DNA of 64,000 nt from Escherichia coli (GCF_003334815.1 NZ_QOWO01000011.1); one strand, 5' to 3'; shown: positions 26,106 to 30,879, counted from the first letter of the stretch. Notes: generated from the sequence alone by a model not told the origin. Numbers and translations are program-made.

Positions 26106-26864
26106 ATGAAACAAACACAACGTCACAACGGTATTATCGAACTGGTTAAACAGCAGGGTTATGTCAGTACCGAAGAGCTGGTAGAGCATTTCTCCGTCAG
26201 CCCGCAGACTATTCGCCGCGACCTCAATGAGCTGGCGGAGCAAAACCTGATCCTGCGCCATCATGGCGGTGCGGCGCTGCCTTCCAGTTCGGTTAACACG
26301 CCGTGGCACGATCGCAAGGCCACCCAGACCGAAGAAAAAGAGCGCATCGCCCGCAAAGTGGCGGAGCAAATCCCCAATGGCTCGACGCTGTTTATCGATA
26401 TCGGCACCACGCCGGAAGCGGTAGCGCACGCACTGCTCAATCACAGCAATTTGCGCATTGTCACCAACAATCTCAACGTTGCTAACACGTTGATGGTAAA
26501 AGAAGATTTTCGCATCATTCTCGCCGGTGGCGAATTACGCAGCCGCGATGGCGGGATCATTGGCGAAGCGACGCTCGATTTTATCTCCCAGTTCCGCCTT
26601 GATTTCGGCATTCTGGGGATAAGCGGCATCGATAGCGACGGCTCGCTGCTGGAGTTCGATTACCACGAAGTTCGCACCAAACGCGCCATTATTGAGAACT
26701 CGCGCCACGTTATGCTGGTTGTCGATCACTCGAAATTTGGCCGTAACGCGATGGTCAATATGGGCAGCATCAGCATGGTAGATGCCGTCTACACCGACGC
26801 CCCGCCGCCAGTAAGCGTGATGCAGGTGCTGACGGACCACCATATTCAACTGGAGCTGTGCTGA
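26106..26864 (+). CDS. glpR: Glycerol-3-phosphate regulon repressor (DeoR family)
   Basis: 252 aa; N-terminal HTH, DeoR-type sugar-phosphate domain. Confidence 0.93.
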   Translation: MKQTQRHNGIIELVKQQGYVSTEELVEHFSVSPQTIRRDLNELAEQNLILRHHGGAALPSSSVNTPWHDRKATQTEEKERIARKVAEQIPNGSTLFIDIGTTPEAVAHALLNHSNLRIVTNNLNVANTLMVKEDFRIILAGGELRSRDGGIIGEATLDFISQFRLDFGILGISGIDSDGSLLEFDYHEVRTKRAIIENSRHVMLVVDHSKFGRNAMVNMGSISMVDAVYTDAPPPVSVMQVLTDHHIQLELC

Positions 26865-28444
26865 TCCTGCACGGCTTCCCACGTCAGACCAAAACGCGCC
26901 AGGTATTTGCGTAGCCGATCCGCGTCATTGACGCTGGCTTTGCCCTGGCGCGAAACGTCAAAAAGCTGGCGTCCGGCTGCGGAAAGCGACTTTGCCTGGC
27001 GGCAGATAGCGATAACGTGTTCCAGTTGCATACGGTCGAAGAGATCGATGTTTTCTGCCTCTGCGCCCAGCAACGCCGTAAGCGCGGAGGGGCGGCTCTC
27101 CTGCCAGTTATAGCGCAGACGGTTTATCTCATCTTCAACCACGTCCAGAGTGATGCGTCCGCTAGTGGCAAAGGTGGCCATCCGCGTGACGCTGGCAGAA
27201 AGTTCGCGAAAGTTACCGCGCCATGTTGCCTGGGGAGAGGTCGCAAAAGCCAACCAGGCGCGCCGCGCTTCGGTGTTAAAACGCACGCTGTCGCCAGTGA
27301 GTGAGGCGTGGCGCTCCACTTCATAATCCAGGTTCGGTTCAATATCTTCCTGGCGCTGGCGTAGACCCGGCAGGGTGAAGGTCCAGAGATTGATCCGCGC
27401 GTACAGATCTTCGCGAAATTTGCCTTCGGCAACCAGCTGGCGCAAATCGCGCACCGTTCCGGCGATAAGCTGAAAATCACTGCTCACCTGGCGATCGCTG
27501 CCAAACGGGTAAAAGGTTTTCTCTTCAATGGCTTTCAGCAGCATTGCCTGTTCGTCTGCGCCCAGTTCGCCAATCTCATCAAGAAACAACATTCCGCCGT
27601 TGGCGCTGCGTAATAAACCTTCACGAGATTCCCGCGCCCCGGTAAACGCGCCTTTTACATGACCAAACAGCGTCGACATGGCGGTATCGCCGCGCAGGGT
27701 GGCGCAGTTCACTTCCACAAACGCGCCGCTAAACTGATGCCGCGCCTGTTTTAACTCGAAGATGCGTCGCGCCAGAAATGACTTGCCCGCGCCGGTTGGA
27801 CCGTTAAGCAGAATCGGCGCGCGGGATTTGATCGCCACTTTTTCGATCTGCTCAATCATGCGGTTGAAGTGGGGGTTACGCGTGGCAATGCCGGACTTAA
27901 GAAAATCAAGCGTTTGCTGGCGTTCCTCGGCAAAGCGGCTGGCGATGGCGTTATAACGGCTTAAATCGAGATCGATAATCGTTACTTCACCTGGGCCGCG
28001 CGGCTGTTCTTTTTTGCGCGGAGGTGAAGATTGTATCAGCCGGGCGGGCAGGTAACGCGCTTCTGCCAGCAGAAACCAGCAAATCTGCGCGACGTGGGTA
28101 CCGGTGGTGATGTGAATTAAATAGTCTTCTTTTTCTGGCTGAAACTCGTAACCACGGGCGAAATCATGCAGGCAGGCGTAGACCTCTTCGAAATCCCACG
28201 GGTTATGCAGTTCAATCTCAACGCTCACCACTTCTGTTTCTGGCGAAACGCTGGCGATATCGCGTTTAAGCGTTTCAAATAGCGAGCGCGAGCGGGCGTC
28301 GTGCAACAATTCCAGTCGATCGATGACCAACGATTCTTGCTGGCATAAACAGAGTGTCGGACGCCATTTTGACCAGCGCTGACTGCCGCGCCCGGCATAA
28401 TCCAGTACGGTACCGACAAAGCCAAAAGCCACTGTTTTACGCAT
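26846..28444 (-). CDS. rtcR: Sigma54-dependent transcriptional activator of rtcBA
   Basis: 532 aa; AAA+ Walker A GPTGAGKS and the GAFTGA motif typical of bacterial enhancer-binding proteins; divergent from rtcB. Confidence 0.93.
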
Positions 28445-28578
28445 CTTAGATATCCTTATAAAAGACGATATTTCATTATCGGTAAATTGGCTTTGCGGGA
28501 AATCTCCGGTTACGGACGTAAAGATATAATCTTTTTTAAAACAATGAATTAAAAAATTAAGCTGCTTATTTAATTTTC

Positions 28579-28594
28579 TGGCACGACGGTTGCA
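28579..28594 (+). promoter_or_regulatory. Sigma54 (-24/-12) promoter of rtcBA
   Basis: TGGCAC-gacgg-TTGCA, a match to the TGGCAC-N5-TTGCA consensus, 39 bp upstream of the rtcB ATG. Confidence 0.8.
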
Positions 28595-28632
28595 ATTATC
28601 AGGACAGCAAACAACGAAAAGAGAAAAACAAA

Positions 28633-29859
28633 ATGAATTACGAATTACTGACCACTGAAAATGCCCCGGTAAAAATGTGGACCAAAGGCGTGCCGGTAGA
28701 GGCCGATGCGCGTCAGCAACTTATTAATACGGCGAAGATGCCGTTTATTTTCAAACATATTGCGGTAATGCCTGATGTACACCTGGGTAAAGGTTCCACC
28801 ATTGGTAGCGTGATCCCGACCAAAGGGGCGATTATTCCGGCGGCGGTGGGCGTGGATATTGGCTGTGGAATGAACGCGCTGCGTACCGCGTTAACGGCGG
28901 AAGACCTGCCTGAAAACCTGGCAGAGCTGCGTCAGGCGATTGAAACGGCCGTGCCGCACGGGCGTACCACTGGCCGTTGTAAACGTGATAAAGGTGCCTG
29001 GGAAAATCCACCTGTTAACGTCGATGCTAAATGGGCTGAGCTTGAAGCCGGTTATCAGTGGTTAACGCAAAAATATCCCCGTTTCCTGAATACCAATAAC
29101 TATAAACACCTGGGAACGCTGGGAACCGGTAACCACTTTATTGAAATCTGCCTTGATGAGTCGGACCAGGTGTGGATTATGCTGCACTCCGGTTCACGCG
29201 GAATTGGTAACGCCATCGGGACTTACTTTATCGATCTGGCACAAAAAGAGATGCAGGAAACGCTTGAGACGTTGCCGTCGCGTGATCTGGCGTACTTTAT
29301 GGAAGGTACGGAATACTTTGATGATTACCTGAAAGCCGTGGCCTGGGCGCAGCTTTTTGCCAGCCTTAACCGCGATGCGATGATGGAAAACGTGGTAACG
29401 GCATTGCAGAGCATTACGCAGAAAACGGTCAGACAGCCACAAACGCTGGCGATGGAAGAGATCAACTGTCACCACAACTATGTGCAAAAAGAACAGCACT
29501 TTGGTGAAGAGATCTACGTGACGCGTAAAGGCGCGGTGTCTGCGCGTGCTGGTCAATATGGAATTATTCCCGGTTCGATGGGAGCAAAAAGCTTTATCGT
29601 CCGTGGGCTGGGAAATGAAGAGTCGTTCTGTTCGTGCAGCCACGGTGCCGGGCGGGTAATGAGCCGAACTAAAGCGAAAAAACTGTTCAGCGTGGAAGAT
29701 CAAATTCGTGCCACCGCGCATGTGGAATGCCGTAAAGATGCCGAAGTGATCGACGAAATCCCGATGGCGTATAAAGATATTGATGCGGTGATGGCGGCAC
29801 AAAGCGATCTGGTGGAAGTTATCTATACCCTGCGTCAGGTGGTGTGCGTAAAAGGATAA
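28633..29859 (+). CDS. rtcB: RNA-splicing ligase RtcB (3'-phosphate/5'-OH RNA ligase)
   Basis: 408 aa; RtcB family sequence. Confidence 0.94.
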   Translation: MNYELLTTENAPVKMWTKGVPVEADARQQLINTAKMPFIFKHIAVMPDVHLGKGSTIGSVIPTKGAIIPAAVGVDIGCGMNALRTALTAEDLPENLAELRQAIETAVPHGRTTGRCKRDKGAWENPPVNVDAKWAELEAGYQWLTQKYPRFLNTNNYKHLGTLGTGNHFIEICLDESDQVWIMLHSGSRGIGNAIGTYFIDLAQKEMQETLETLPSRDLAYFMEGTEYFDDYLKAVAWAQLFASLNRDAMMENVVTALQSITQKTVRQPQTLAMEEINCHHNYVQKEQHFGEEIYVTRKGAVSARAGQYGIIPGSMGAKSFIVRGLGNEESFCSCSHGAGRVMSRTKAKKLFSVEDQIRATAHVECRKDAEVIDEIPMAYKDIDAVMAAQSDLVEVIYTLRQVVCVKG

Positions 29860-30879
29860 ATGATGAAAAGGATGATTGCGCTGGATGGCGCACAGGGCGA
29901 AGGTGGCGGGCAGATCCTGCGCTCGGCGCTGAGCCTGTCGATGATAACCGGCCAGCCATTTACCATCACCAGCATTCGTGCCGGGCGGGCGAAACCGGGG
30001 CTGTTGCGCCAGCATCTGACCGCGGTAAAGGCGGCGACGGAAATTTGCGGAGCAACCGTGGAAGGCGCGGAGCTGGGGTCGCAGCGTCTGCTCTTCCGGC
30101 CCGGCACCGTGCGCGGCGGCGATTACCGCTTTGCTATCGGTAGCGCCGGAAGTTGTACGCTGGTGCTGCAAACGGTGCTGCCCGCGCTGTGGTTTGCCGA
30201 TGGACCTTCGCGTGTTGAAGTGAGCGGCGGCACCGATAACCCGTCGGCGCCGCCTGCGGATTTTATCCGCCGGGTGCTGGAGCCGCTGCTGGCGAAAATA
30301 GGAATTCATCAGCAAACCACGCTGTTACGCCACGGTTTTTACCCTGCCGGAGGCGGTGTGGTGGCAACGGAAGTCTCGCCCGTGGCATCGTTTAACACCT
30401 TGCAACTTGGCGAGCGCGGGAACATTGTGCAGATGCGTGGAGAAGTTCTATTAGCTGGTGTGCCGCGCCATGTTGCTGAGCGTGAAATCGCTACACTGGC
30501 GGGGAGTTTTTCCCTGCATGAACAGAATATTCATAACCTGCCGCGCGACCAGGGGCCGGGTAAAACCGTCTCGCTTGAAGTCGAAAGTGAAAATATCACC
30601 GAACGCTTTTTTGTCGTCGGTGAAAAGCGCGTCAGTGCCGAGGTGGTTGCGGCACAGTTGGTGAAAGAGGTGAAACGCTACCTGGCAAGCACGGCGGCGG
30701 TGGGGGAATATCTTGCTGACCAACTGGTGCTACCGATGGCGCTGGCGGGCGCGGGGGAATTTACGGTCGCCCATCCCTCATGCCATCTGCTGACCAATAT
30801 CGCGGTGGTGGAGCGTTTCTTGCCGGTGCGGTTTAGTTTGATAGAAACAGATGGCGTAACGCGGGTGAGCATTGAATGA
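29860..30879 (+). CDS. rtcA: RNA 3'-terminal phosphate cyclase
   Basis: 339 aa as drawn (a start one codon later would give 338); begins immediately after the rtcB stop. Confidence 0.92.

Follow-up and report, generated by a model that had tools for sequence, protein, structure and literature searches.

The rtc RNA-repair module has been described in Escherichia coli K-12 (b3422, b3421, and b4475; Genschik et al. 1998; Engl et al. 2016, PMC5175333; Kotta-Loizou et al. 2022, PMC9650030), where the regulator gene rtcR stands back to back with the rtcBA operon. In Salmonella Typhimurium, the corresponding rtcR/rsr-yrlBA-rtcBA system (PMC7790460, PMC9879122) has the same divergent CARF-type RtcR and a sigma-54 promoter, and its last genes are likewise those for RtcB and RtcA. 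In Salmonella and many other lineages, a Ro60 (Rsr) gene, Y-like/tRNA-like RNAs, or a Band_7 gene lies between promoter and rtcB, whereas E. coli has none of these. Activators of the NtrC family (NtrC1, PspF, ZraR, FleQ, and NorR) share with RtcR the AAA+ domain bearing the GAFTGA motif and, apparently, the layout of enhancer, integration host factor (IHF) site, and -24/-12 promoter, but they carry a receiver, GAF, PAS, or V4R regulatory domain where RtcR has a CARF domain, and the C terminus of RtcR, unlike theirs, has no Pfam helix-turn-helix (HTH) match. The CARF effectors of CRISPR type III systems (Csm6, Csx1, Can1/Can2, Card1, and Csa3) are only 8 to 16% identical to RtcR, whose output is a sigma-54 AAA+ ATPase and not a nuclease and whose signal is reported not to be a cyclic oligoadenylate (PMC9650030). 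Here, we analyzed the rtc module in a 64,000-nucleotide stretch of an E. coli genome (GCF_003334815.1, NZ_QOWO01000011.1), which we call the window and whose coordinates we use throughout.

Three full-length open reading frames (ORFs) were found at 26846 to 30879: rtcR (26846 to 28444, minus strand, 532 amino acids, b3422 in the K-12 annotation), rtcB (28633 to 29859, plus strand, 408 amino acids), and rtcA (29860 to 30879, plus strand, 339 amino acids counted from the first ATG). A spacer of 188 bp separates rtcR from the divergently oriented rtcB, and the double ATG of rtcA immediately abuts the rtcB stop codon; RefSeq places the K-12 rtcA start at the second ATG, one codon later (29863). 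The genes glpD, glpE, glpG, and glpR flank the module on one side and malT, malP, and malQ on the other. An earlier sequence-only reading had described a complete rtcR/rtcBA module lying between the glp and mal regulons, and both statements hold. This is the locus found in K-12, with no change in gene order, promoter, or intergenic sequence. Positions 20711 to 34712 are 99.94% identical, in reverse orientation, to positions 3552000 to 3566000 of strain MG1655, annotated there as malT, rtcA, rtcB, rtcR, glpR (pseudogene), glpG, glpE, and glpD. From 26846 to 30879 there are only two nucleotide differences from K-12, giving RtcR F229 (L in K-12) and RtcA K235 (N in K-12). F229 is shared with Escherichia albertii and another Escherichia, which argues that the K-12 residue L229 is the derived one; N235 is found in K-12, in the solved structure PDB 1QMH, and in other Escherichia. 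From these sequence data, the locus is almost certainly the chromosomal E. coli rtcR/rtcBA RNA-repair module, complete and apparently functional.

The protein encoded by rtcR scored 852.4 bits against the NCBIfam equivalog RNA_repair_RtcR (NF038308, cutoff of 650), with a match over residues 1 to 527 of 532. At its N terminus, codons 1 to 185 (27890 to 28444, minus strand) encode the CARF-like regulatory domain (Pfam RtcR, PF06956), matched at residues 2 to 185 with 1.4e-85, so that the CARF-fold sensor for which a domain search had been suggested is indeed there. It is followed by the sigma-54 interaction AAA+ domain (codons 187 to 354; 27383 to 27886, minus strand; Pfam PF00158 Sigma54_activat, 9.4e-51) and an AAA lid (residues 362 to 443). 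This region has a Walker A motif, GPTGAGKS (residues 215 to 222; 27779 to 27802, minus strand), the GAFTGA loop that contacts sigma-54 (residues 265 to 270; 27635 to 27652, minus strand), and a Walker B motif, MLFLDE (residues 285 to 290), which agrees with the earlier description of a divergent enhancer-binding regulator with GAFTGA. Sequence relatives in the PDB (NtrC1, FleQ, ZraR, and PspF; E values of 1e-43 to 1e-27) reach the AAA+ part only. A Pfam search of residues 444 to 532 matched no HTH family, and the assignment of a DNA-binding domain therefore draws on the full-length equivalog and on the literature, in which an HTH in RtcR is described (PMC7790460). RtcR lacking its N-terminal domain has been reported to be constitutively active (PMC5175333, PMC9650030).

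RtcB is a 3′-phosphate/5′-hydroxyl RNA ligase by its match to Pfam PF01139 (1.1e-133; model positions 1 to 426 of 426), and its relatives in the PDB are TTHA1785 and Pyrococcus horikoshii RtcB. The residues D75, C78, H168, H185, H281, H337, and R341 are all present, with the His337 codon at 29641 to 29643; D75, C78, H168, H185, and H281 we take to be metal ligands, following work of the Shuman laboratory. Against NCBIfam, the best matches of RtcB were to intein-containing and release-factor-associated models and stayed below their cutoffs (457 versus 1,050 and 173 versus 407). We do not count this against its identity, because the library apparently offers no equivalog to RtcB of the classical rtcBA type. 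In RefSeq, the identical protein of K-12 carries the name RNA-splicing ligase RtcB. RtcA, the RNA 3′-terminal phosphate cyclase, reached two NCBIfam equivalogs (NF003247 with 777 bits, cutoff of 333) and has the Pfam domains RTC (PF01137) and RTC_insert (PF05189). It is identical to the solved E. coli enzyme PDB 1QMH at 337 of 339 residues, the differences being M2V and K235N, and the adenylylated histidine H309 is present (codon at 30784 to 30786). H337 is the catalytic RtcB residue mutated in PMC5175333, where H337A and H308A mutants were used.

The spacer holds a sigma-54 promoter, TGGCAC-GACGG-TTGCA (TGGCACGACGGTTGCA; 28579 to 28594, plus strand), with GG at 28580 to 28581 and GC at 28592 to 28593. 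It points to rtcB and ends 38 nucleotides before the rtcB ATG. A scan of both strands of the 64 kb returned it as the single, exact match to TGGCAC-N5-TTGCA; it also fits TGGCAC-N5-TTGCW and the extended form CTGGCACG-N4-TTGCA. Shuffled sequences gave a mean of 0.08 matches, with at least one match in 7 of 100 shuffles, figures that take no account of the placement of the site in the 188-bp spacer or of its aim at rtcB. From the positions of the GG and GC, transcription is predicted to start at C28605 (plus strand), 12 nucleotides past the -12 GC, leaving a 28-nucleotide leader to rtcB. This start agrees with the ApC (-1/+1) primer for native PrtcBA (PMC9650030), as A28604-C28605 is such a dinucleotide. 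According to PMC9650030 and PMC5175333, which cite Genschik et al. 1998, rtcBA transcription depends on rpoN and RtcR. The promoter had been called a textbook sigma-54 promoter, which is right for its exact consensus but not for its reported strength, since native PrtcBA is very weak in vitro despite the consensus (PMC9650030).

Identical or nearly identical sigma-54 elements adjoin rtcR in other taxa. When CTGGCACGNNGGTTGCAA was searched in 100,044 species genomes, at least 8 of the 120 matches listed adjoined rtcR, among them matches in Riflebacteria and in a betaproteobacterium. Promoters of sigma-54 type occupy the same position beside rtcR in Xenorhabdus, Pseudomonas aeruginosa, Myxococcales, Verrucomicrobiales, Riflebacteria, and Chitinimonas, and in most distant loci such a promoter lies in the rtcR-proximal spacer and is directed away from rtcR.

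Further upstream, the spacer contains the palindrome CGATA-TTTCAT-TATCG (CGATATTTCATTATCG; 28466 to 28481), a candidate RtcR enhancer, or upstream activating sequence (UAS), located at -139 to -124 relative to the predicted start and 22 to 37 bp upstream of the rtcR ATG. The RtcR UAS was given as unknown in a 2016 review (PMC4987338), and our literature search found no definition of it later than that; PMC9650030 mentions an IHF site and a UAS for rtc with their sequences absent. The core of the palindrome, GATA-N6-TATC, occurs only once in the window (28467 to 28480). When the spacer was compared with that of a relative whose RtcR is 84% identical (L004/L114), only two blocks were conserved: one is the -24/-12 promoter, and the other, adjoining the rtcR ATG, holds CGATA-N6-TATCG, while the surrounding spacer diverges. 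Other inverted repeats in the spacer (I1 to I10) were mostly A/T-rich chance pairs, and only CGATA/TATCG survived comparison across species; the repeat search itself had missed this palindrome because its arms are only 5 bp long.

We extended the comparison to distant rtcR loci from Xenorhabdus, P. aeruginosa, Chitinimonas, Myxococcales, Verrucomicrobiales, Riflebacteria, and five metagenomic contigs. Of 14 lineages, 9 had a GATA/TATC pair separated by exactly 6 bp no more than 100 bp upstream of rtcR (the window at 28466 to 28481 and loci L114, L092/L046, L009, L007, L008, L134, L006, and L130), while dinucleotide shuffles averaged 0.18 and never exceeded 2 in 2,000 trials. Pairs with spacings of 0 to 5, 7, or 9 to 11 bp were found in none of the 14 lineages, and none were found in the next 200 bp. 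Nine of the 14 sequences had served to form the hypothesis, and the other five loci were obtained afterwards; two of these five have the pair at N6, versus about 0.06 expected. The motif is about 90 to 140 bp upstream of the -24 element, which supports an enhancer role because this is the usual enhancer distance. With moderate confidence, these comparisons point to the GATA-N6-TATC palindrome at 28466 to 28481 as the RtcR enhancer.

The same element might instead belong to the sigma-70 promoter, leader, or operator of rtcR, be the site of another factor, or be kept for rtcR expression. In all lineages it precedes the rtcR start codon by only 5 to 37 bp, a position expected of a leader or core promoter, and our literature search gave no binding data for it. 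The orientation of the half-sites also differs by lineage (inverted, everted, or direct), which is odd for a simple dimer site and fits such a non-enhancer role. However, the strict 10-bp phasing, with nine lineages at N6, is typical of a protein site rather than a promoter hexamer or Shine-Dalgarno sequence; the spacing from the -24 element is that of an enhancer; and RtcR is the sole regulator common to these loci across Proteobacteria, Myxococcales, and Verrucomicrobiales. A role of this kind without RtcR binding is thus possible but rather unlikely. The enhancer and promoter readings are, moreover, compatible, in that an enhancer overlapping the rtcR promoter would lead to autoregulation, which the short distance of 22 to 37 bp to the rtcR ATG also suggests. 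On balance, we lean toward the broader interpretation that the phased GATA/TATC half-sites are the RtcR enhancer, conserved from Enterobacteria to Myxococcales and Verrucomicrobiales and also making RtcR autoregulatory.

Between the candidate UAS and the promoter lies an IHF-like site, AAACAATGAATTA (28539 to 28551, plus strand; -66 to -54), with one mismatch to WATCAANNNNTTR. P. aeruginosa (L007) and L134 have exact IHF consensus sites at the equivalent position. As exact consensus sites were found in just 3 of the 14 lineages, the conservation of this site is only suggestive.

The sequence evidence fits the published Rtc model at every point, and no sequence feature speaks against it. In the mechanism that follows, the genes, domains, motifs, catalytic residues, promoter, architecture, and conservation come from our analysis; the dependence on sigma-54 and RtcR, the CARF inhibition, the inducers, and the chemistry are taken from the literature; and which element is the enhancer, and at which base transcription starts, are our inference. 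RtcR would be expressed from its own divergent promoter and anchored by its C-terminal region to an enhancer that precedes the rtcBA start by about 130 bp and is probably the GATA-N6-TATC palindrome (28466 to 28481). As long as there is no signal, the N-terminal CARF domain would keep the AAA+ domain inactive. Damage to the translation apparatus, such as that from ribosome-targeting antibiotics, oxidative stress, or ribotoxins that cleave tRNA in the anticodon loop, would give rise to the signal, and a DNA bend assisted by IHF would bring the RtcR oligomer to the promoter. There, GAFTGA would contact sigma-54 and ATP hydrolysis would open the closed complex at TGGCAC-N5-TTGCA. From the resulting rtcB-rtcA transcript, RtcA would be made, which is expected to turn RNA ends with a 3′- or 2′-phosphate into 2′,3′-cyclic phosphates via His309-AMP, and RtcB, which would join 3′-phosphate or 2′,3′-cyclic phosphate ends to 5′-OH ends via His337-GMP. 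Together, the two enzymes would reseal broken tRNA, rRNA, or transfer-messenger RNA (tmRNA).

The signal step is where published work diverges. Induction of rtc by VapC, colicin D, and tetracycline has been reported (PMC5175333), and induction by oxidative stress as well (PMC5175333, PMC9650030). Candidate signals are 5′ tRNA halves with a 2′,3′-cyclic phosphate acting on the CARF domain, as proposed for Salmonella, where such halves bind the domain and drive oligomerization (PMC7790460), and a requirement for RtcA and RtcB, as in E. coli, where both are needed for RtcR activation and bind the CARF domain directly (PMC9650030). These two models disagree. In E. coli, binding of tRNA fragments was seen with the isolated CARF domain but not with full-length RtcR, the fragments failed to activate transcription in vitro, and oligoadenylates were excluded as the signal (PMC9650030, which also reports tmRNA as a target). 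These results favor a feed-forward model that changes only the signal step of the mechanism above: the CARF domain would respond not to a cyclic-phosphate tRNA half but to RtcA and RtcB together with an RNA-repair product of the translation apparatus. Since sequence cannot choose between the models, and since the two may even be compatible because RtcA makes cyclic ends, we regard this version tentatively, as a serious possibility short of the preferred reading, in which tRNA halves are kept among the candidate signals.

In most lineages examined, rtcR is divergent from an rtcB/rtcA operon; the exceptions L130 and L132 have neither rtcB nor rtcA in the DNA covered. Elsewhere, the promoter first drives a tRNA-like/YrlA RNA together with genes for Band_7, Ro60, RlaP, or Tpt1-like phosphotransferase proteins, and then rtcB and rtcA. 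Elements of tRNA-like/YrlA (Y RNA-like) type follow the promoter in L007 (3613 to 3686), L132 (2764 to 2837), L034 (1563 to 1629), L059 (2743 to 2810), L077 (2045 to 2112), and L131 (942 to 1073). An Rfam scan of the whole window matched only RyhB (5724 to 5788, 83 bits), and in the rtc leader neither a Y-RNA nor a tRNA-like element came up; as there is no RNA family match in the rtc region, the E. coli operon is the minimal form. In the relative with 84%-identical RtcR, a GC-rich insertion of about 160 nucleotides with hairpin potential (L004, 102 to 262, and L114) separates the sigma-54 promoter from the rtcB start codon; it has no Rfam match and is absent from E. coli. A short RtcR of 269 amino acids in E. 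albertii (L014) was an artifact of the locus end and not a pseudogene.

The module is not universal in the species. At least 80% of it is present in 4,838 of 5,426 complete E. coli genomes, and nearly all others, including sequence type 131 (ST131), retain only 20%; it is deleted in about 587 of the 5,426 (about 11%). The deletion spans 3,233 bp (27230 to 30462), and a 14-bp stretch aligns on both sides of the junction (compare L002, ST-131, NZ_CP157672.1). Lost with it are the 5′ three-quarters of rtcR, the promoter, the whole of rtcB, and 603 bp from the start of rtcA, and the 3′ parts of rtcR and rtcA are thereby brought together. In addition, IS421, ISVsa5, or IS1A insertion sequences are annotated within the aligned 26000 to 31000 region, otherwise 100% identical, in CRE389, BE311, F41, LF3-1, and other strains (H1 to H13). 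These losses and insertions in other strains, together with low basal expression and the weakness of the promoter in vitro (PMC9650030), might suggest that the module is present but silent or decaying here, as in lineages with loss. We consider this highly improbable: all three ORFs are full length, all checked catalytic and motif residues are intact, the promoter and upstream elements are those of K-12, where the system is inducible (PMC5175333), and the two amino acid differences from K-12 are RtcR F229, the genus-wide residue, and RtcA K235. Our interpretation of the locus as a functional module under the published model comes with caveats: the module is dispensable in nature, given its deletion in about 11% of complete genomes, and to this are added the reported in vitro weakness of the native promoter, the missing HTH match, the changing half-site orientation, and the conflict between signal models.

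Module sequences also occur outside the chromosome, with matches at 44 plasmid places in total. On a 66-kb plasmid of ETEC1706 (NZ_CP122915.1; L003, 3008 to 6088), a 3′ rtcA fragment, 88.6% identical, and a complete malT directly adjoin a mer operon and a Tn3-family transposase; judged from this context, the rtcA-malT segment has the look of a chromosomal piece that a mobile element has picked up.

Next to the module, glpR (26106 to 26864, plus strand, 252 amino acids) is intact. It overlaps the 3′ end of rtcR tail to tail by 19 bp (26846 to 26864), as the sequence-only reading had noted, and the same overlap is present in the K-12 annotation. A C at 26256 keeps glpR in frame here, whereas MG1655 has a 1-bp deletion of that C, so that its glpR is frameshifted and annotated as a pseudogene. 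Of the nine substitutions relative to MG1655 in the whole window, seven are grouped, with one indel (the C at 26256), in 21776 to 32695, an 11-kb segment from glgP through glpD and rtc into malT; the changes include MalT I311 (M in K-12) and L619 (S in K-12), besides RtcR F229 and RtcA K235. The sequence comparison leaves room for two origins of this cluster, which could be a recombination tract or could consist of K-12-specific changes. Positions 34712 to 64000 have two mismatches to MG1655. Positions 1 to 20711 are 100% identical to MG1655 except for IS1E, which splits yrhA in MG1655 and is missing here; the 9 bases at 3284 to 3292 in yrhA are those of the K-12 target-site duplication.

A simple scan of 26000 to 31200 for sigma-70 promoters and terminators stayed at chance level, with no convincing rtcR promoter or rtcA terminator. 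A hairpin, GCCGGAT...ATCCGGC, in the rtcA-malT gap (30893 to 30916; -13.5 kcal/mol) was not significant against shuffled sequences (z = -1.4). An arginine-rich antisense ORF of 373 amino acids opposite rtcB and rtcA (29194 to 30315, minus strand) was unsupported and was judged to be a frame artifact.

The earlier observation is thus confirmed and its interpretation supported, for a feature that is ordinary and already described; because all of it is established for the same E. coli locus, the finding adds no new biology here, and the sole slightly new item is the candidate RtcR enhancer motif. In bacteria, the rtc module corresponds to the tRNA-splicing ligase system of eukaryotes and archaea, and RtcR is a rare CARF sensor wired to transcription and not to a CRISPR nuclease. 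The module affects tolerance of ribosome-targeting antibiotics and ribotoxins, and its loss in ST131, a major pathogenic lineage, and in about one in nine sequenced E. coli genomes bears on claims that Rtc would be a useful target for antibiotic potentiation. The 16-bp enhancer candidate, if true, would let RtcR regulons be predicted in other genomes.

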